Positions 3,720-41,896 of a DNA stretch of 64,000 bases are shown here, in pieces. The translations under genes were made by a program, and so were the position numbers. Within the stretch, counting starts at the first letter, position 1. Each line of letters opens with the position of its first letter. Under the pieces are notes generated by a model that saw only the letters and a program-made list of their open reading frames with translations, searched no databases and had not been told where the DNA came from. Source of the stretch: Candidatus Lindowbacteria bacterium RIFCSPLOWO2_12_FULL_62_27 (lineage in GTDB: Bacteria > Lindowbacteria > 2-12-FULL-62-27); assembly GCA_001784175.1 (NCBI GenBank), contig MFPR01000028.1, forward strand, positions 37,955 to 101,954, in the 5' to 3' direction.

Positions 3720-4358
3720 ATGGCCGGCGGCGGTCGGCGCGCCCGGCGCGCGTATTTCGTTCATCCCACCGCACTCATTGAGAAGAGGGTGCGGATCGGC
3801 CGCGGCACGTCGATCTGGGACAACGTCCACATCCGGCACGGCGCGGTGATCGGGGAGGAGTGCATCGTCGGCGAGAAGACCTACATCGCATATGACGTCC
3901 GGATCGGAAACCGCGTCAAGATCAACGCCATGGTCTACATCTGCGCCGCCGTCACCATCGAGGACGGCGTCATGATTTCCGCGTCGACCACATTCACCAA
4001 CGACAAATTCCCCCGCGCCTGCGTTGCCGATCTTTCGCGGCTCAGGCCCTCGGAGCCCGATGACGAAACCCTCAGCACCACGGTGCGCCGCGGCTCGACG
4101 ATCGGCGCCGGCTGCGTGATCGGATGCGGGTTTGATCTCGGAGAATACTGCATGGTCGGGATGGGATCGATCGTCACAAAACCGGTGCCGCCGTTCCACC
4201 TTGTCTTCGGCCAGCCTGCGCGGTCCCGCGGCGCGGTCTGCCGGTGCGGCCATCCGATCCTGACCGAGGACCCTGCGACGGTTGCGAACAAAGTTCTGAC
4301 GTGCGTGAAGTGTAAAGAACGGTATCGATGCCGCCGGGGCGAGGTCAGCCGGATCTGA
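3720..4358 (+). CDS. Hexapeptide N-acetyltransferase (WbpD-like) with C-terminal Zn ribbon
   Basis: FVHPTALIE, hexapeptide repeats, TFTNDKFPR, CRCG...CVKC. Confidence 0.88.
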   Translation: MAGGGRRARRAYFVHPTALIEKRVRIGRGTSIWDNVHIRHGAVIGEECIVGEKTYIAYDVRIGNRVKINAMVYICAAVTIEDGVMISASTTFTNDKFPRACVADLSRLRPSEPDDETLSTTVRRGSTIGAGCVIGCGFDLGEYCMVGMGSIVTKPVPPFHLVFGQPARSRGAVCRCGHPILTEDPATVANKVLTCVKCKERYRCRRGEVSRI

Positions 4359-5776
4359 ACCCGCGGTTAAGCGCCCGGGAGGGGTGGGCGCTGCTTGGAT
4401 TGGTTCTGGCCGGGATATTCTTCCGGGTCTGGATCCTGGAGGGCGCCGGCATCAGTCCGGGCGGGCAGAATTATTATTACCGCGAGATCGTCCGCGGCAT
4501 GCGCGAGCGCGGAGAAATCGGGCTGTACCCCTACCGCGCGGATGCGTTTGTGGAGTTTCCGGAAATCATCAACGATCCGACCCCGCCGATTCGGAAGGTC
4601 GACCGCACCTTGCAGGACTTCGGCGTCAGCGTTGAAAGCGATTCGCGATTCATGGAATGGACCCCGCTTTTGCGGTATCCGCCGGGGTTCCCCGTCTTTT
4701 TGTACGCGGCGCACGGCGTCCTCGGCGACAAAACCAAACGGGTGGTCCTGCTGTGCATCGTCCTGAACGGAATCATGATCGCGCTGACGTTTCCCGTGGC
4801 CTGGATGCTGTTTCAGAGGAGAGACGTGGCGTGGGCCGCAACGGCGGTCAACGCGTTCTGGATTTTCACCGCCAAAAATTCCGCCACCTACGATCCCGCG
4901 TCGCTGGTCATCCCCGTCATGATGGCGGCCTGCCATTCGGCGCTCATGGCCTGGCATACGGGCAGGTGGCGATGGGTCCTGTCGATGGCCGCGCTGTCGT
5001 TTGTGGCGTCGAACCTTCGCGCCGACACGTTCTTTGTGTCGCTCCTGTTGCCGCTCGCCCTCTGGTTCCGCCCGGTTTCGATCCGGGAGAAACTGATCAA
5101 GCCGGCCGCCGCGATCGCGGTGGCGCTGGCGCTCTGGATTCCGTGGTCGTATCACAACCTGAACCATTTCGGCGTGTTTCGGCCGTTTCCCGCCGGCGCC
5201 GGATTCAACATCCTGGTGACCATTGGCCGCTACGCCCCCGAAAGCGGGTTTCCAGCGGACGACTATCAGACCATCGTCTGGGATCTGGGAGAGGATGCGG
5301 TCCGGCAGAAACTCTGGCCGTCCGACGTCACCTACCCGAACGGCGTGGCGCGGGACAAGCGGAAACTGGATCGGGCGGTCGAATGGATTCGCGAGCATCC
5401 GGTTCGGTACGCGGCGGTGATGCTGGTTCACATGAGATACTTTTTCTTCGCCGAGGAGGAGGCGGTGGAACAGCAGATCCGCGGCTGGTTTTCCGCGTTT
5501 CCTCCGGCCGTGGCCCGCGTCATGGGTTGGATCGGCAGGGCGATGGAACCGGCGGCGATACTTCTCGCGTGCGCGTGTCTATGGCGAAAGCGGAAAGATT
5601 CGAGTATGATGGTTCCCGTCATGCTGCTCTGGTCGTACGTGCTGCCGCATCTGCCGCTTTGGGTGGAATCAAGATATTTCAAAGCGGCCTGGCCGATCGT
5701 CCTGATTTTTTCGGTGGCCTGCATCCTGACCATGATCCGCAGGCCGGATCGCGCGGCGGAGGCTCGGGCGTCATGA
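4328..5776 (+). CDS. Polytopic membrane protein, GT-C/ArnT-like glycosyltransferase
   Basis: Multiple hydrophobic helices, RYPPGFPVFL, PWSYHN, ESRY. Confidence 0.6.
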   Translation: MPPGRGQPDLNPRLSAREGWALLGLVLAGIFFRVWILEGAGISPGGQNYYYREIVRGMRERGEIGLYPYRADAFVEFPEIINDPTPPIRKVDRTLQDFGVSVESDSRFMEWTPLLRYPPGFPVFLYAAHGVLGDKTKRVVLLCIVLNGIMIALTFPVAWMLFQRRDVAWAATAVNAFWIFTAKNSATYDPASLVIPVMMAACHSALMAWHTGRWRWVLSMAALSFVASNLRADTFFVSLLLPLALWFRPVSIREKLIKPAAAIAVALALWIPWSYHNLNHFGVFRPFPAGAGFNILVTIGRYAPESGFPADDYQTIVWDLGEDAVRQKLWPSDVTYPNGVARDKRKLDRAVEWIREHPVRYAAVMLVHMRYFFFAEEEAVEQQIRGWFSAFPPAVARVMGWIGRAMEPAAILLACACLWRKRKDSSMMVPVMLLWSYVLPHLPLWVESRYFKAAWPIVLIFSVACILTMIRRPDRAAEARAS

Positions 5777-6861
5777 ACGTGATGATTGTGCTCGGGACGC
5801 GCCCCGAAATCATCAAGATGGCGCCGATCATCCGCGAACTTCGAACTCGCCGGCGGCGGTTCTCGCTCGTCCATACCGGCCAGCACTATTCGTACGAAAT
5901 GGACCGGACCTTTTTCAAGAGCCTCGGCTTGCCGGCCGCGACCGTCAATCTCAACGTCGGCTCGGGAACACACGGCGCCCAGACGGCCAAAATCCTTCAC
6001 CGGATCGAACAGGTCCTCCTCGAACTCAAACCGGACGTGGTTCTGGTCGAAGGCGACACCAATTCTGTCATGGCCGGCGCGCTGGCGGCGGTCAAATGCC
6101 ACATCCCGGTCGGCCATGTCGAGGCGGGACTCCGGTCGTTCGACCGGCGGATGCCGGAGGAGATCAACCGGATTGTCGCCGATCATGTCGCGTCTTTTCT
6201 GTATGCTCCAACGCCGCTCGCCGCCCGCCAGCTCCGGAAGGAGGGCATCGCCGTCGGAAAGATTTTGGTCACCGGCAACACCGTGGTCGACAGCCTCGAC
6301 TGGATCAAAAAAAATCCCGCGCTGGCGGCGACGGTTCGGTCCCTCGGATTTTCGCCGGGCCGGTTTCTCCTCACCACGATTCACCGGGAGGAAAATGTGG
6401 AGGACCGGCGGCGGCTAGCCGGGATCGTCGACGGCCTTCATCGCGTGGCCCGGCATTTCGACATGCCGGTCGTCTTTCCGGCGCATCCTCGAACCAAGGG
6501 GAGACTGAACCGGTGGGGCCTGGAAAATTCTCTCAAACTAAAAAATATCCGGCTCCTGCCGCCGCTCGACGCCCTCCCCTTCATGGCCCTCCAGACGCAC
6601 GCCCGCCTGGTTCTCACCGATTCGGGCGGAGTCCAGGAGGAATCCTGCATTCTGCGGGTGCCCTGCGTGACGCTCCGCGACAACACGGAACGGCCCGAAA
6701 CGGTTGCTGTCGGCGCCAACCTCCTCGCCGGCGCCGATCCCGGCAAGATTCTGGCGGCTTCCGTACGCATGTCAAACCGCGCGCGGTCCTGGAAGAACCC
6801 GTTTGGTGACGGCCGGTCGGGCCGGAGGATCGTTGACCACTTGAGTTCTATTTTCCATTAA
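5773..6861 (+). CDS. wecB: UDP-N-acetylglucosamine 2-epimerase (non-hydrolysing)
   Basis: ATG 5773: MNVMIVLGTRPEIIKMAP, HTGQHY, HVEAGLRSFDRRMPEEINR, TDSGGVQEE, TERPET. Confidence 0.93.
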   Translation: MNVMIVLGTRPEIIKMAPIIRELRTRRRRFSLVHTGQHYSYEMDRTFFKSLGLPAATVNLNVGSGTHGAQTAKILHRIEQVLLELKPDVVLVEGDTNSVMAGALAAVKCHIPVGHVEAGLRSFDRRMPEEINRIVADHVASFLYAPTPLAARQLRKEGIAVGKILVTGNTVVDSLDWIKKNPALAATVRSLGFSPGRFLLTTIHREENVEDRRRLAGIVDGLHRVARHFDMPVVFPAHPRTKGRLNRWGLENSLKLKNIRLLPPLDALPFMALQTHARLVLTDSGGVQEESCILRVPCVTLRDNTERPETVAVGANLLAGADPGKILAASVRMSNRARSWKNPFGDGRSGRRIVDHLSSIFH

Positions 6862-34182: not shown

Positions 34183-35451
34183 TCAGACCTTCACCCGAAT
34201 TTGACCCCTCAGGAGTTTTTGCATCAGACCTTTTTTCTGGAGTCTGTAAATTTCCAAGCGACGCTCAAGAAGCCGAATTTCCAGCAGGGCACGATCAAGG
34301 AAGTCAGCACTTTTTCTTTGATAGGCGATATCCGGAACGGGAACTTTACATGAGAAGAAATATTTGTCGTTTATGTTTAAGAGACCATTTCCTCTGGCAC
34401 TGGAGCTGATTAGCGGGTGAAGCTGTCTATTCAGCGAGCCGACTTCGAAATAATGGCGAAAATATCTCGGCTCAACGTCTTTGTTCAACTTGAAGCAGGT
34501 ATAGACAAAAGGAATGAGCGCCCGGTTGGCCTCAAGCCTGAATATACACCCATAAGGATAAGTTTTGGAATTGCCCCTATTATATGCGAACTCTCCCTTT
34601 TTTAGAAGGATATATTTTTGGAGACTCTCCCCCGTCATATCTCGGCCATATTTCTCGCTCTGATCTATAAACCCACGCGTTGAAGAGATCATCATGGCAG
34701 ACACGTCTGATCCGTCGTTTCTCCGAGTGATCTCAGATGAAATCTCCGAGAGCCTATATTTTTTCGAATTACCTACATTTGGCTTTTGGAGCAGCTCTAT
34801 CCGATACCCATTAAAAGCAAGTCTTTTTTGTGAAAGTAAAGCAGCAGTCTTCTCGATGGCGTTGTCCCACGCGCTCAAAATCTCGGAGATTTTGTGTTGT
34901 TCAGGGAGAGTGGGGAGGGGAATCTGAAAATCCCGAAGATCGGTCAGTGAGATATTGGGTCTGGCAGCATCTACTTGCATATCCAGTATTCGCTTGACTG
35001 TTTCGGGTGCTTGGAAAAAAAATTCTACAAATGGTACGGAATGGCTGTCACGGACACGAAAAACCGCGACGGCTTGGTTTACATTAGCAGATCCCAAGTC
35101 CTGCTTCACTCGGCAGGATCGACCAATAGAGGCCCCAACAAGGTTAATGAGGATGTCTCCGCGGCGGAGTTGCGTGCGCTTGAGTTTCGTATGAAACGTA
35201 AGAGGAAGGAATTTAGGCACCGAAACGTCAAGGTAGCCATCGCGTACGTTTTCACTTGTGACGAAAAGCATTCCTGTCGCAACATAGTTGAAGCCCTGCC
35301 ACTTTGGTGAGGCGCCTTTGCCGATCAGACTCGTGATCTCCGAGCCTTTGACACATCCCCACCCCTCCGGAATCCACCCCACCTTGGTCTTCTTGTATCC
35401 GGGGCGGTTTTCGTTGGGCGACCGGCCGATCTCTCCTGCAGGGCGGGTCAT
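34183..35451 (-). CDS. hsdS: Type I RM specificity subunit S
   Basis: GYKKTKVGWIPEGW, PTLPEQHKISEILSAWD, KKGLMQKLL; two lower-GC TRDs. Start ATG 35451. Confidence 0.92.
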   Translation of the reverse strand: MTRPAGEIGRSPNENRPGYKKTKVGWIPEGWGCVKGSEITSLIGKGASPKWQGFNYVATGMLFVTSENVRDGYLDVSVPKFLPLTFHTKLKRTQLRRGDILINLVGASIGRSCRVKQDLGSANVNQAVAVFRVRDSHSVPFVEFFFQAPETVKRILDMQVDAARPNISLTDLRDFQIPLPTLPEQHKISEILSAWDNAIEKTAALLSQKRLAFNGYRIELLQKPNVGNSKKYRLSEISSEITRRNDGSDVSAMMISSTRGFIDQSEKYGRDMTGESLQKYILLKKGEFAYNRGNSKTYPYGCIFRLEANRALIPFVYTCFKLNKDVEPRYFRHYFEVGSLNRQLHPLISSSARGNGLLNINDKYFFSCKVPVPDIAYQRKSADFLDRALLEIRLLERRLEIYRLQKKGLMQKLLRGQIRVKV

Positions 35452-36050
35452 ATATCCATCCACGATTGTTGGGGCGACGGGCGGCCGGCGCGGGATGGGT
35501 GTTCGCGGTCGATATCCCATTTTGCCGAATTGTCGGCGATGTATTGGCGAATGCGGTTTAATTCACGTTCGTCGCGGATGACATGTTCATAATAATTTCG
35601 TTGCCAGACGCGTTTGCCGGGCGTGTTTCGTATCTGGTTAATCCGTTTCGTTGTGATGGATTTGAATTGACCGATGATCGCCCCGACCGATCCGGAAACG
35701 GGCCCGCATGGATTCACACCCGAACACGTAGGGGCGACCCGGCGGGTCGCCCCTACAATATCCGATGACGTTCCAATAGGATCCACGATGACAATAATCC
35801 CATGGAAATGATTCGGCATGCCGATCCATTCGTCCAATTCAACGGTCGGACGTATGACCGCCGTTTTGGTCCATTCCTCGGCAACAATGTTTCCATATTC
35901 ATTCAACTGTATTTCCGTGCCGACGACGTCTCCGAACAAACATTCCCGATCTTGGACACACAACGTCACAAAATATGCCCCCGCCGAGGAATAATCGTAT
36001 CCCTTGAGGCGTATCGACCGGCGGTGGTGCGCGATAGGACTATATTTCAT
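35448..36050 (-). mobile_element. REP-associated tyrosine (Y1/HUH) transposase, RAYT-like
   Basis: RRSIRLKGYDYS..GAYFVTLC, MPNHFHGI (HUH), WQRNYYEHVIR, YIADN. Confidence 0.88.
35728..35756. repeat. GTAG-type REP hairpin inside the RAYT coding sequence
   Basis: GTAGGGGCGACCC-GGC-GGGTCGCCCCTAC perfect 13-bp inverted repeat. Confidence 0.9.
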
Positions 36051-37388: not shown

Positions 37389-37495
37389 ATCGAGAATGAA
37401 ATCAAGGACGGAGGGTTGCAGTCAATAGCCGTTTCTACTTGCCCGCGTTTCTACTTGCCTGAAGGCGATCGCCCGGAACGCCGTGAGCATTTCGC

Positions 37496-37548
37496 TTGAC
37501 AGGTATATCACATCGTGATAGTTCTCGAGCAATATACCAGGAAGGGAG
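37496..37548 (+). promoter_or_regulatory. Promoter/operator and RBS of the DIP1984-like gene
   Basis: TTGACA 37496-37501, palindrome TATCAC-ATC-GTGATA 37506-37520, GAAGGGAG RBS. Confidence 0.6.
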
Positions 37549-37551
37549 AAA

Positions 37552-38094
37552 ATGCAAATGCCTGACGACGAGAAGCGGCTCTATCTTTATGAAGCCCTGG
37601 AACTGCGGGGCGAATATGACGCGCGGATCAAGACGCTGAAAGAGAGTCTGCCGGAGACGAAGTCTAACCGGGACCGGGGGCTGTTTGGCCGGGATGAGGA
37701 GAGCCTACGGCGGCCGAGCGCCGGGTTTGATGCAGTCGGAGCCCGGGCGGAGCTGCGGGCGCTGGAGTTCAAGCGCCGGAAGCTCAACAGCGCGATTCAG
37801 AAGGCCAACTTTGAGCATCAGATTTCTCTGGACGGCGAAGCGGCGAATCTCAACGAGGCGCTTGAGAGCCGAAAGTCTCTGAACGAACGGATCGGCGAAC
37901 TCCACTCGCAGGTCGTGGCGTCCGCTTATGAGCGGGTGATCTACAAGGAAGGGCGGGACATCGTCGAAAAGAGCGAAGTGCCGTACCCCGACGCGACCAG
38001 GACGCTCGACGAGGCTCGGGTCCGCTTTCGGAATCTGAACCGGCATCTTCGGAGATCGTCGTTCGAGGTGACGGTCGACTTTAAAGATGAATAG
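37552..38094 (+). CDS. DIP1984-like alpha-helical (coiled-coil) protein
   Basis: LYEALELR near the N-terminus, KLNSAIQKANF, NLNEALESRK, terminal SSFEVTV; internal two-fold repeat that I associate with this family. Confidence 0.65.
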   Translation: MQMPDDEKRLYLYEALELRGEYDARIKTLKESLPETKSNRDRGLFGRDEESLRRPSAGFDAVGARAELRALEFKRRKLNSAIQKANFEHQISLDGEAANLNEALESRKSLNERIGELHSQVVASAYERVIYKEGRDIVEKSEVPYPDATRTLDEARVRFRNLNRHLRRSSFEVTVDFKDE

Positions 38095-38345
38095 CGCCGG
38101 AGGCAGGGGGGCATGCGCGAATGTTCTGGCGACGGGACATAGCCCAGGTGGCGACTGTGAGAGCCTAACTCCTTGGGGTGACGACCAAATCGTCCGGAAA
38201 AGCCGTTTCCAGAGGAAGCGACAAATCCACGCATCAGCACAAGCGCCTCATCCTCAAAGCTCATGGGCCCCGCGCCTCCGGTTTTGTAAATGACAGTGCG
38301 CAACCCGACCACCCGCACTTTTCTGTGCATCTATTTTCCGGAGCG
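38095..38345 (+). ncRNA. Putative structured ncRNA downstream of the DIP1984-like gene
   Basis: 5' and 3' ends pair; at least five internal hairpins including a GCGA tetraloop; central A/C-rich unpaired tract. Confidence 0.55.
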
Positions 38346-38730
38346 GACGGACCGGGGAGTTGAGACAAAAAACGTTTGTGTCGCATTTAACGGGACGACA
38401 GAGCGAGCGTTATATCGCGCGGTCGAGAGGTTGGGTTCAACGGAAATTAAGAAACGAATAGCGATTTTTTCGTATGACCATCTGGTCAAGGTCGCGGAGA
38501 GGGAGGACCGGGGGATCACGGAAGTCATCAAGATGCGGCTCGGCGATTCGGTCCTGCGGCGCGGCGGGCGGGTCCGGCGGACGGTGACTGTGAAGCGGGA
38601 CGATGTTGCACGGTGGCGGCGGGCGTTGATGAGGGAGGCCGGAATCGGGCGACGCGTCTTTCAAGAGATATTGGCATTTTTGGACGACCTCGATGGCGGG
38701 GAGAAACGCGCGAGCGGCGTGGCCGCTTGA
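38290..38730 (+). CDS. Hypothetical protein, start uncertain (probably near 38359)
   Basis: Open frame with protein-like composition; GGGGAG at 38354 but no canonical in-frame start beside it. Confidence 0.4.
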   Translation: MTVRNPTTRTFLCIYFPERTDRGVETKNVCVAFNGTTERALYRAVERLGSTEIKKRIAIFSYDHLVKVAEREDRGITEVIKMRLGDSVLRRGGRVRRTVTVKRDDVARWRRALMREAGIGRRVFQEILAFLDDLDGGEKRASGVAA

Positions 38731-38872
38731 ATTTGATTTCGCGCCGATGCGGCGGTACAGTTCCCATATGTGGAATGACTCTGAAAGAAAAGAGCGTGGC
38801 TGAATCATGAAACGACTCGCGAGGTTCCGGAAGGAGGGACGCGCTATGCCGTTTTTCTAACGGGAAAACTCC

Positions 38873-40390
38873 ATGAAGGGTGAGGTGAAGGGAATGTTTT
38901 CGGTCAAGTTGAATATTTATGGTTTTTTTGTGCGAGCGGCCGGCGCCGGATCCGTTGTGGGCGCTGTCGCCGTTGCGAGTTTGCTGGCATGTGAACGCAC
39001 CTACATCCTTGTCGCGATCGCCGGGGTTTGGGCCGTCCTCTGTGTTACCGCTCTGATCTATGCCGTCTATCGGATTGATTTTCGACTTGCCTTGTATCTG
39101 TGGCCGCAATCGCAGTCCATTGAAGTTTTTGCACACGAATTCCCGAACAACCGTCTGGTCGATCTGCATTTTGCGGCGCGGGATTATTGCGCGGCGGAGG
39201 GGTTTGATGTCTCCCTGAATAGTTCCCATCAATCGGAACTGCGCAGTCTCATCGCCCTGCGGGTTTCCTGGTGGGACCGGAGAATTCATCGGGCGAAATG
39301 CATCCCGCGGGCGATCGACGAGGCGCAAGAGGTCTATGTTCCCGTGGACGAGTTTTGGATCAGGACGCCTTGGAACGCGCCAGGACACAACGCGGCGATC
39401 GTCCGGGTCTGGTATGACAAACGGGAAGAGGAGACCTGGCTTGAGATCGCGGCCGCGGACAAGGAGTCGGCGAGTGCGATTCATCGGGCCATCCGCGAGC
39501 GGGCTGACCAAAACAGCATCTACAAAAATAAGGTGATCGAGGCCGTCGTGATGGAGCGGGATCGGGACCCATTCGACCTTGTGGAGTGTCCGGACCGGAT
39601 GATCCTCCGGTTCAAGAAACTGCCGAAGGTTTCGGAAGGCGACATCATCATCGAGCCGCATATCCGGCAGATCATCCGGCGGAACCTTTTTGATTTTCAC
39701 AGGCACAAGGATGCGATCAAGGCGCGTGGAATTCCCTTGAAGAAAGGGCTGCTGTTCTACGGCCCGCCAGGCACCGGCAAGACCTACACGTGCCGCTACA
39801 TTTACAGCGAGCTGGCCGACATCACGACCCTCATTATCACCGGCCATGCGCTCAAGGAAATCAAATCCGTATGCCGGCTGGCCCGAACCCTTCAGCCGAG
39901 CCTCGTTGTCCTCGAAGACGTGGACTTGGTCTTTTCATCCCGCGCGGACAATTTTTACAGCACGTCGCTCGGCGATCTCATGGACCAGCTCGACGGCTTC
40001 AACGCGGATGACGCGGTGATTTTCATCCTGACGACGAACGACATCGTGCGTCTTGAGTCGGCGATCAAAGACCGGCCGGGCCGGATCAATCAGTGCATCT
40101 TTTTCGGCACCCCGAGCCCCGACGTCCGCCGCCGGTATTTTTTGCAGTCTATGTCCGCGCACGATCACGCGGCGCTCGATCTGGACAAGTGGATTGCGAA
40201 CACGGAAGGATGTTCCCACGCCTTTATCAAGGAGCTCATCTTCCGCGCCGTACAGGTCTCTATGGAGGAAACCGGCTACACGGCCGGAGTCCTGCATCTG
40301 AAGGACGCGGATTTTCAGAAGGCGCTTGACGAATTGACGTCGTTTGACGACCGGAAGGGCCACGCGATTCTGGGGTTCCGGGCTTGTTAG
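38873..40390 (+). CDS. AAA+ ATPase with N-terminal TM hairpin
   Basis: GPPGTGKT, VLEDVD, LTTN, DRPGRI; two hydrophobic segments at the N-terminus. Confidence 0.88.
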   Translation: MKGEVKGMFSVKLNIYGFFVRAAGAGSVVGAVAVASLLACERTYILVAIAGVWAVLCVTALIYAVYRIDFRLALYLWPQSQSIEVFAHEFPNNRLVDLHFAARDYCAAEGFDVSLNSSHQSELRSLIALRVSWWDRRIHRAKCIPRAIDEAQEVYVPVDEFWIRTPWNAPGHNAAIVRVWYDKREEETWLEIAAADKESASAIHRAIRERADQNSIYKNKVIEAVVMERDRDPFDLVECPDRMILRFKKLPKVSEGDIIIEPHIRQIIRRNLFDFHRHKDAIKARGIPLKKGLLFYGPPGTGKTYTCRYIYSELADITTLIITGHALKEIKSVCRLARTLQPSLVVLEDVDLVFSSRADNFYSTSLGDLMDQLDGFNADDAVIFILTTNDIVRLESAIKDRPGRINQCIFFGTPSPDVRRRYFLQSMSAHDHAALDLDKWIANTEGCSHAFIKELIFRAVQVSMEETGYTAGVLHLKDADFQKALDELTSFDDRKGHAILGFRAC

Positions 40391-40571: not shown

Positions 40572-41144
40572 TCATTTTCGTTTCTCCCCCAGAACCGGCA
40601 GCGTCGGCTCGATCTTCCTGGCCTCCGCTTCGCCGAACAGCCGCGCATAGGCCGCAAGAAAGTTCAGCCGAAACGTCCGTTTGTCGCCGATGGCGTGACT
40701 CATTTCGTTCGTGTAGAGCCCGATCAGTTTCTCGGCCGACAGCGGTGATGCCTCGTGAATGGCCTCGACACCCTCCAGGTCGCGGCCGATCCCCCGTAGG
40801 GTCTTCATCATCGCAAGATCATGTTTCTCCGGGACCATGACCTCAAGATGTTTTGCGCCGGGGATGGGGACGGCCTGTAACCGGTCCTCGTAGTTGTAGG
40901 GCGTATCCGCCACAGTCACAGGACTCACGATGACTTTCGATCCTGTCTCTTGATTCACCTTGTCACAGGCGACGAAAAAATCGCGGTCGGTTTCGATGGT
41001 ATCGATGTCGACAGTTCCGTATCGTGGCGAGTACACCAGCGCGATCGCGCTGCCGCCGATGATCAGCGCCTTGGTTCGCTTGGCCAATTTTCTGTCCACG
41101 CGCTGAAGAAATTCAATCAGCCCCTTGCGCTCAAGCGGGTTCAT
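40572..41144 (-). CDS. DUF6036-like nucleotidyltransferase (AbiEii-like toxin)
   Basis: IIGGSAIAL...TVDID, DLAMMK..RG..RDL. ATG 41144. Confidence 0.75.
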   Translation of the reverse strand: MNPLERKGLIEFLQRVDRKLAKRTKALIIGGSAIALVYSPRYGTVDIDTIETDRDFFVACDKVNQETGSKVIVSPVTVADTPYNYEDRLQAVPIPGAKHLEVMVPEKHDLAMMKTLRGIGRDLEGVEAIHEASPLSAEKLIGLYTNEMSHAIGDKRTFRLNFLAAYARLFGEAEARKIEPTLPVLGEKRK

Positions 41145-41896
41145 GAAAATTTCACCAGAAGATCCTTGAAGTCTGATTCCGGCACGTTCATGTAAAATCC
41201 CCACCGCCGGGCAAGCGGAGGCGTATGCCGGCGAGCCAGTTCTTCCTCGTAGCGGTTTTTCGGCATAAAAAAGTATTGGCTCCGATGGCGCCGGCCATCC
41301 CGAAAATCCGCGGCCCACTCCCGCAACCGCCTGGCCTCCGTGACCCTGCCGGTCAGATCGAGCAGATAGCCCATGGCCTGCTCGACATCGAGCCGATTGC
41401 ATTCCTGCCAAAGCTTCTCTCGATCCAGTTTTTCGTGAAGCCGAAACAACATGAGCGGCAGGACACGGAATACCGTCCCATCCTGACGGGCCTGCCTTGC
41501 CGCCACCGCCAGTGCGCGTTCGAGCGGCAGCCGACGTCCGACCTTGGCTCGCCGAAGAGGCGCGCCGTGCTCCATGAGCGTGGAAAGAGCCGCGTCGACA
41601 TTCTCTTCGGCGCCGCCCCCGGTCTCAAATGATTGTGTCAGGAGCTCGCGTAAAACTCTGCACAACCGGTTGGTGGAATGCCATCCGTAGACCGCCGCTG
41701 CCCCGCGCCGCTGCTTGTGCACCAAGCCCGTCCGGACGAACTTGTCCAGCTCCCGGGCCACGGGATGGTAGGAGCGCCCCACCCGCCGGGAAAACCCCAG
41801 CGCGCTGTCTCTTGTCTCGTTCACCATCAGTTCCTGCAACAAGGCCACTCGTGTCTCGCTTCCAAAGAGTCCTTTGAGAACATTCGTATTATCCAT
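41141..41896 (-). CDS. wHTH-containing partner, putative type IV antitoxin
   Basis: LFGSETRVALL...VARELDKFVRTGLV wHTH; overlaps the NTase start (ATGA). Confidence 0.6.
   Translation of the reverse strand: MDNTNVLKGLFGSETRVALLQELMVNETRDSALGFSRRVGRSYHPVARELDKFVRTGLVHKQRRGAAAVYGWHSTNRLCRVLRELLTQSFETGGGAEENVDAALSTLMEHGAPLRRAKVGRRLPLERALAVAARQARQDGTVFRVLPLMLFRLHEKLDREKLWQECNRLDVEQAMGYLLDLTGRVTEARRLREWAADFRDGRRHRSQYFFMPKNRYEEELARRHTPPLARRWGFYMNVPESDFKDLLVKFS

Follow-up and report, generated by a model that had tools for sequence, protein, structure and literature searches.

The window analysed here, a stretch of 64,000 nucleotides from Candidatus Lindowbacteria bacterium RIFCSPLOWO2_12_FULL_62_27, carries on its forward strand a gene of the DUF6847 subfamily and, beginning 3 nt past the stop codon of this gene, a conserved element of about 183 nt (38098-38280, + strand; Table 1). 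In keeping with the initial annotation, which placed the pair in a defence hotspot, the type I restriction genes HsdR and HsdS lie upstream, a YhcG nuclease gene and a MazG-like gene also flank the pair, and a gene for an IetA-like AAA ATPase follows downstream. Also downstream, on the minus strand (40572-41896), the gene of a DUF6036 nucleotidyltransferase and a winged-helix gene resembling the PADLOC candidate PDC-M05A overlap, and the two probably constitute a further defence or toxin-antitoxin pair. A 146-aa ORF (38290-38730, + strand) that belongs to no Pfam, NCBIfam or PADLOC family takes up most of the 590 nt that separate the element from the ATPase gene, and a terminator-like site is located at 38711-38729. 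Upstream of the DUF6847-subfamily gene, the direct repeat CGTTTCTACTTGCC occurs twice, 2 nt apart, at 37430-37459, and TTGACA (37496-37501) is followed by the perfect palindrome TATCAC-ATC-GTGATA (37506-37520); the latter two could be a promoter and an operator, and this arrangement is not conserved in homologous loci.

Table 1. Coordinates of the gene, the helices and motifs of the RNA element, and neighbouring features in the window
Feature	Position	Strand	Remarks
Y1 (IS200-like) transposase gene	35448-36050	-	
DUF6847-subfamily gene	37552-38094	+	180-aa ORF; PF20935 28.7 bits, cut-off 27
P1, 5' strand (CGGAGGC)	38098-38104	+	Closing helix; pairs with 38274-38280 (GCCTCCG); 3 of 7 pairs changed on both sides
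P1b, 5' strand (GGGGC)	38108-38112	+	Pairs with 38267-38271; 100% of cells pair; 1 pair changed on both sides
P2a (GC/GC) and P2 hairpin	38117-38143	+	P2, 38122-38128 with 38133-38139; GNRA loop GCGA, 38129-38132
Candidate H-type pseudoknot	38145-38166	+	CAG 38145-38147 with CTG 38155-38157, crossing P3, GGC 38150-38152 with GCC 38163-38165
P5 hairpin region	38173-38197	+	GACGA/TCGTC, 38180-38184 with 38190-38194; possible P4; invariant CGG, 38195-38197
P4 (possible), crossing P5	38173-38176 with 38185-38188	+	TTGG with CCAA; possible in 47 of 61 sequences
A-rich tract, predicted single-stranded	38198-38263	+	5 AGC motifs in the window; between the invariant CGG and P1b
3' strands of P1b and P1	38267-38280	+	P1b, 38267-38271; P1, 38274-38280
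T-run right after P1	38282-38285	+	Possible transcript end; family pattern
Terminator-like hairpin (AGTGCG/CGCACT), then TTTCT	38295-38324	+	Window-specific, outside the conserved element; found by a dedicated scan
IetA-like AAA ATPase gene	38873-40390	+	Hydrophobic N-terminus; PADLOC and NCBIfam

The initial description of the gene product as a DIP1984-like helical protein is borne out, with the qualification that the protein belongs to a divergent branch. Residues 67-173 match the Pfam family DUF6847 (PF20935) above its gathering cut-off, as do all 16 of 16 aligned members of the subfamily (best E 5.1e-09). With a length of about 178 aa, the subfamily forms a separate branch whose proteins are about 30 residues longer than canonical DIP1984/DUF6847 proteins. 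The NCBIfam model DIP1984_fam (NF038048) scores the window protein at 30.2 bits, under its curated cut-off of 70; judged by these profile scores, the protein is a divergent relative of DIP1984_fam and not a member by NCBI's rule. A total of 492 protein homologues are found at E<=0.001, and the best 120 of these 492 show 61-82% identity and are nearly all 176-180 aa long; most homologues start at the position of the second ATG of the window gene (37558).

An AF2 model computed from the 16 aligned homologues (mean pLDDT 86.6) predicts long helices alternating with two beta-hairpins, and its sole Foldseek hit in the PDB at E<=0.001 is 3kdq, the structure of DIP1984 from Corynebacterium diphtheriae, which carries no annotation (E 1e-3, TM 0.63-0.76). 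By this model, the window branch shares a common fold with canonical DIP1984/DUF6847 proteins, to which its Pfam match is weak, and a sequence profile search against the PDB reaches the 3kdq fold at E 0.08 only. The internal repetition that had been ascribed to the protein is a mixed case: at the sequence level it is weak, the best segment pair being equalled by 5 of 300 shuffles, whereas the AF2 model does contain repeated helix/beta-hairpin units. The protein is not basic (pI 6.4; 34 R+K versus 35 D+E), it matches none of the PADLOC defence families, and neither it nor the 16 aligned subfamily members match toxin-like families in Pfam. A search for longer, fused forms of the protein found none, which is weak evidence. 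The ESM Atlas contains a look-alike, Sipho_Gp157 (TM 0.73), which we retain as a mere lead because neither Pfam nor PHROGs HMMs confirmed it. A DIP1984-family gene is termed hypothetical in PMC10889530, and in an open full-text library without subscription journals the family is mentioned only in genome and plasmid annotation papers, with no description of the function of the protein.

The element behind the gene was recognised by comparing the DNA that follows the stop codons of homologous genes, which have one block in common. A regular expression finds a complete copy of 179-198 nt in 81 of 88 places, corresponding to 61 distinct sequences, and in 58 of these 61 the copy begins 8-22 nt past the end of the protein match. 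Using the 61 distinct sequences, we built a covariance model, R1, which detects the element in 87 of the 88 places, always on the strand of the gene and directly downstream of it (83 full length, 4 cut by contig ends); in the sole place lacking a match, L081, the contig stops at the gene. In the window, R1 scores 135.8 bits (E 2e-36), and two additional weak matches of R1 (E 0.18 and 0.36) are noise. The structured RNA that the initial annotation had placed behind the gene is therefore real, as judged from covariance and from the linkage in 87 of 88 places, but its limits and fold differ from those drawn at the time. The RNA measures about 183 nt instead of ~250 nt, and where the domain had been extended to 38341, the R1 match ends at 38283 and the sequence beyond is unalignable between loci.

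Among structured RNAs of bacteria, this RNA constitutes a new class without an Rfam family. Rfam 15, a comparison already proposed with the initial description, contains no match at E<=10 to the window region and none at E<=1 to six typical loci, and ARAGORN finds no tRNA or tmRNA at the element. In the same full-text library, again without subscription journals, the RNA itself is not described.

The predicted fold of the window sequence by itself does not exceed chance, and the case for an RNA therefore rests on comparative evidence: single-sequence folding of 38095-38345 gives z = 0.19 on the + strand, with 111 of 200 shuffles at least as stable, and z = 0.88, which is not significant, on the minus strand. 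The covariance analysis of regions downstream of homologues, which had also been suggested initially, does find a conserved and covarying structure. The RNAalifold prediction comprises 25 pairs, and compensatory changes are seen at 12 of these. We propose a structure of 37 pairs, including two crossing helices, which was scored on a structure-blind MAFFT alignment of the 61 sequences. Standard pairs occupy 90.6% of the cells in this structure and 32-45% once the 3' partners are slid by 1-3 columns. Changes on both sides are observed at 20 of the 37 pairs, compared to at most 10 in the slid controls, and none of 500 shuffles reaches 20.

The RNA lies on the + strand, as had been argued from the many G-U pairs: the helices contain 121 G-U cells versus 49 A-C cells, the GNRA loop is on this strand, and the orientation to the gene is fixed. 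No reading frame across the element is open in more than 18 of the 61 sequences. These observations also bear on the idea that the element functions at the DNA level, as a recombination site, a single-strand origin or a transposon end, instead of as RNA. This idea draws on the commonest neighbour of the pair, a Y1 (IS200-like) transposase gene, often fused to a DnaA-C helix-turn-helix, which is present near 21 loci and in the window itself. However, the transposase genes vary in their distance from the pair and may lie on either side of it, each genome has a single copy of the element, which, as noted, is oriented in one way relative to the gene, and the many G-U pairs and the GNRA loop also speak against a DNA element. 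We therefore consider a DNA-level element to be highly improbable.

In the proposed structure, helix P1 closes the domain. The closing pairs originally drawn, CCGGAGG with TTTCCGG (38335-38341) and ATGCGCG with TGTGCAT (38324), have to be abandoned, the true partner of the P1 5' strand being the segment given in Table 1. Within P1, the window copy has one G-C pair where 60 of 61 sequences show A-U, and altogether it holds two compensated G-C pairs at sites where nearly all other copies have A-U. By contrast to the outer pairings, two inner hairpins stand: ATGTTCTG-GCGA-CGGGACAT corresponds to the GNRA-capped helix P2 (38122-38139), which covaries, with 5 of 7 pairs changed on both sides and numerous G-U pairs, and GACGA/TCGTC corresponds to the conserved helix P5, which forms a perfect helix of at least 3 pairs in 58 of 61 sequences, with 18 sequence variants. 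Two further hairpins of the earlier drawing do not belong to the conserved fold; in the alignment, CGTTTCC-AGA-GGAAGCG falls inside the variable A-rich tract and is specific to the window, while AGTGCG/CGCACT (38295-38300 with 38314-38319) lies outside the element and resembles a terminator, with a T-run after it.

Between P2 and P5, a candidate H-type pseudoknot may form. Three of the four P3 pairs are changed on both sides; the CAG/CUG pairing that crosses P3 says nothing for or against the pseudoknot because it is invariant. A second pseudoknot, of P4 with P5, is likewise a candidate only, because greedy re-registration of this region brings up alternative pairings and hence alternative registers. 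The helices of both pseudoknots rest on few pairs.

The 3' part of the element, between P5 and the 3' strand of P1b, is a tract predicted to be single-stranded. The initial annotation had noted an unpaired tract with reiterated CA/CTCA/CAAA units; an A-rich tract does exist, but the unit repeated in it is AGC(A). Across the 61 sequences, the tract is 65-68 nt long and 44.5% A, and it contains 311 AGC motifs where 65 are expected from shuffles, a 4.8-fold excess. Individual tracts have 3-9 AGC, and most have 4-6; the motifs recur at positions spaced by about 8-15 nt, and TRF detects no tandem repeat in 37400-38900. Across 53 distinct loci, pairwise nucleotide identity averages 77.9% in the 5' domain of the RNA and 61.8% in the tract, compared to 70.9% for the gene as a whole (76.1% at codon positions 1 and 2, 46.4% at position 3) and 18.9% in the 100 nt that come next. 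The RNA is constrained at least as strongly as the non-synonymous positions of the protein. The downstream genes differ between loci, as does the sequence of these next 100 nt, and the RNA is thus not accompanied by the conserved downstream gene that a riboswitch or leader would have.

A run of at least four T within 12 nt after P1 is present in 29 of 64 distinct elements, compared to 5% at random positions. In the window, this run is followed by a second, terminator-like hairpin, which the standard terminator scan missed because its 13-nt loop exceeds the limit of that scan. Upstream regions of the gene are conserved only in a strong ribosome-binding site. Taken together, the T-run, the second hairpin and the conservation of nothing but the ribosome-binding site make it plausible that the RNA is co-transcribed with the gene.

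Co-transcription raises the alternative that the element is a purely cis-acting 3' UTR, that is, a structured terminator and 3' end protector that determines how stable the mRNA of the gene is, whether or not the protein feeds back on it, and that has no separate role as an RNA. The start of the element shortly after the protein match in nearly all distinct sequences, its unvarying location on the strand of the gene and the T-run after P1 would all be accounted for in this way. On the other hand, the T-run is missing from 35 of 64 elements, and a length of 183 nt, a GNRA hairpin, pseudoknots and near-invariant single-stranded motifs far exceed the needs of a terminator. Moreover, the 5' domain of the RNA is as conserved as non-synonymous codon positions, and the RNA of one locus, L008, has been retained although the gene before it is broken. 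We consider a purely cis-acting 3' UTR unlikely.

At L008, the gene is reduced to a frameshifted 3' remnant (3897-4144, about residues 96-180) and the RNA is full length (127.8 bits), and therefore the RNA is able to outlast the intact gene, if perhaps only for a while. A second frameshifted 3' remnant, in L009 (3992-4182, about residues 115-180), is accompanied by an RNA that is half decayed (77.4 bits).

The distribution of the pair is patchy across phyla although protein identity is 54-66%. A species-genome collection yields 7 loci, including members of the Desulfobacterales, Syntrophobacteraceae, Nitrospinota, Desantisbacteria and Binatia, and a metagenome collection yields 366 confirmed stretches with the gene, of which the best 80 were used. 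Neither relatives of the subfamily gene nor the RNA pattern occur in viral contigs, and tblastn with the window protein has no match on plasmids. Gene and RNA are each single-copy in the genome of the window, and five other carrier genomes have exactly one RNA each, at the gene. Among 401 sampled genomes from the phylum of another carrier (G004), which is not the phylum of the window, the gene is present in 4 and the RNA pattern in the same 4. The 18-nt pattern, allowing at most 1 mismatch, is found in 19 other genomes as well, and a reversed control pattern is comparably frequent; R1 confirms the RNA in 3 of 3 gene carriers tested and in 0 of 10 other pattern loci tested. In the phylum of the window, for which four species genomes were examined, the RNA is missing from the three others and, it follows, so is the module, an indication that it was acquired by transfer.

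These data are relevant to the possibility that the RNA acts without binding the neighbouring protein, for example as a trans-acting sRNA, a sponge for an AGC-binding factor, a ligand-sensing RNA or a ribozyme, its inheritance along with the gene being incidental. Ligand-binding and catalytic RNAs typically have compact domains with pseudoknots, like the 5' domain here, and the lack of basic character in the protein and the intact RNA beside the broken gene in L008 would likewise agree with such a role. However, no orphan RNA was found in 6 whole genomes or in the 401 sampled genomes (where the pattern search has limited sensitivity), and the linkage in 87 of 88 places persists across phyla while other neighbours vary. 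We regard an RNA that functions independently of the protein as quite improbable, more so than a cis-acting 3' UTR.

All-against-all clustering of ORFs from the loci reveals no other gene that is conserved beside the gene-RNA pair. Apart from the Y1 transposase, the recurring neighbours are mostly toxin-antitoxin genes, namely PIN, DUF433, UPF0175/DUF3368, HicA/HicB, HEPN with nucleotidyltransferase (MNT), DUF5615, TumE, DUF4926 and DUF2283. No reverse transcriptase, as would be looked for in a retron or DRT system, is present among the 36 representatives scanned of the 49 neighbour clusters that recur in at least 3 loci. A homologue of the ATPase of the window (38% identity) is found behind the RNA in L007 only (4789-6315) and not at other loci.

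Altogether, judged from sequence comparison, a protein-RNA system is the best-supported reading of the locus. More specifically, we place about even confidence in a model whereby 38098-38280 encodes a previously undescribed structured RNA of ~183 nt that forms a two-part module with the DUF6847-subfamily protein encoded upstream. In this model, gene and RNA would share one transcript, of which the RNA would form the 3' end, and in about half of the family the transcript would end at the U-run after the closing helix P1. The compact 5' domain, comprising P1, P1b, the GNRA-capped P2 and one or two pseudoknots, would hold out the single-stranded tract, and the regularly placed AGC motifs of the tract might offer the protein a multivalent platform for binding. 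The RNA would most likely restrain or regulate the protein, as in a type III toxin-antitoxin pair, and the gene and the RNA together would constitute a self-contained mobile unit that travels as cargo of toxin-antitoxin and defence islands. Several observations count against the two-part module: the composition of the protein, its lack of matches to PADLOC or toxin-like families, the retention of the RNA behind the broken gene in L008, the order of protein before RNA, the absence of tandem repeats and the few pairs in the pseudoknots.

Comparison with known systems helps to place the proposed module. In type III toxin-antitoxin systems (ToxIN, CptIN, TenpIN), as in the pair described here, a protein and its cognate non-coding RNA make up a compact unit of two parts that lacks any other conserved partner, and the systems have a patchy spread and are located among toxin-antitoxin and defence genes. 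The RNA of type III systems consists of tandem repeats of about 34-36 nt and is encoded upstream of the toxin, which is an endoribonuclease that cuts those repeats. Here, in contrast, the RNA comes after the gene in all 87 places found and is a single 183-nt fold in which TRF finds no tandem repeat; Pfam and PADLOC give no match to the ToxN/AbiQ, CptN or TenpN families, and the protein model matches only 3kdq. The pair thus departs from type III systems in the three defining features compared, namely the repeat RNA, the gene order and the toxin family. The second comparison is with sponge RNAs of the CsrB/RsmZ type, which likewise reiterate a short motif (here AGC, in 3-9 copies) in an otherwise variable stretch of RNA. 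CsrB/RsmZ-type RNAs bind CsrA/RsmA through GGA motifs, most of which are displayed in the loops of hairpins, and their genes are not known to lie beside that of the protein. By analogy, the reiterated AGC is as expected for multivalent capture of a protein, although the motifs described here lie in one single-stranded tract that is enclosed by a conserved folded domain.

The canonical DIP1984/DUF6847 genes, annotated on plasmids as "DIP1984 family protein" or "septicolysin", raise the question of how far an association with RNA extends. In the 401 sampled genomes, the Pfam model identifies 3 canonical genes; R1 has no match at these 3 loci, even with filters off, and a gene-free gap of 180-290 nt follows each gene. 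The annotation is found on 345-371 plasmids in PLSDB, mostly from Acinetobacter, with other hosts being Picosynechococcus, Paracoccus, Psychrobacter, Streptomyces, Streptantibioticus, Mycobacterium and Enterococcus, and canonical genes are also present on 4 viral contigs. In the PLSDB tables, which are incomplete, the gene is followed by 268 to over 600 nt free of annotation in 7 of 10 plasmid stretches, and nothing is annotated downstream in the remaining 3.

Behind canonical genes on plasmids, genomes and phage contigs (L097, L098, L099 and L122-L135), conserved non-coding blocks occur across phyla. They contain GGUAG ahead of a lineage-specific long-range helix, GGCGAGU or GGCGUGCACA past the 5' strand of this helix, a T-arm-like GGGUUCGAnUCCC, the motifs GCnCAGCAC and GUAAAUGU, and GAGGGYGGGnnCGGGG past the 3' strand of the helix. 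Taken alone, the length of the long-range helix is reached by no more than 3 of 60 shuffles in 5 of 12 canonical sequences, and it does not stand out from the shuffles in the other 7. For the 12 canonical loci, Rfam gives noise only, except for a tRNA hit in L099 that, at 25.6 bits, is under the cut-off of 29, and ARAGORN reports neither tRNA nor tmRNA in the canonical downstream regions. The downstream blocks suggest that the entire DIP1984/DUF6847 family carries 3' RNAs. Tentatively, and with more doubt than confidence, we propose that all DIP1984/DUF6847 proteins are RNA-partnered, each branch having its own structured RNA of ~170-215 nt directly behind the gene, some of these RNAs with a hairpin like the T-arm of tRNA, and that they make up a widespread, unrecognised class of mobile RNP or RNA-antitoxin systems; this proposal takes in the copies on phage contigs and those on plasmids, among them the resistance plasmids of Acinetobacter and plasmids of actinobacteria and cyanobacteria.

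The finding adds to the structured RNAs of bacteria a new and well-supported class whose fold is complex. If the RNA and the DUF6847-subfamily protein do form a module, a widespread and uncharacterised protein family gains its first functional handle, an obligate RNA partner, and a toxin-antitoxin or defence role, if the pair has one, would make it an RNA-protein type of new architecture. The module is small (about 750 bp) and is therefore directly testable in E. coli. Should RNA partnership prove to be family-wide, the RNA of the window would be the first member with solid covariation support. Finally, a link that extends to canonical DIP1984 would bear on a gene that is routinely annotated without a function on the carbapenem-resistance plasmids of Acinetobacter.
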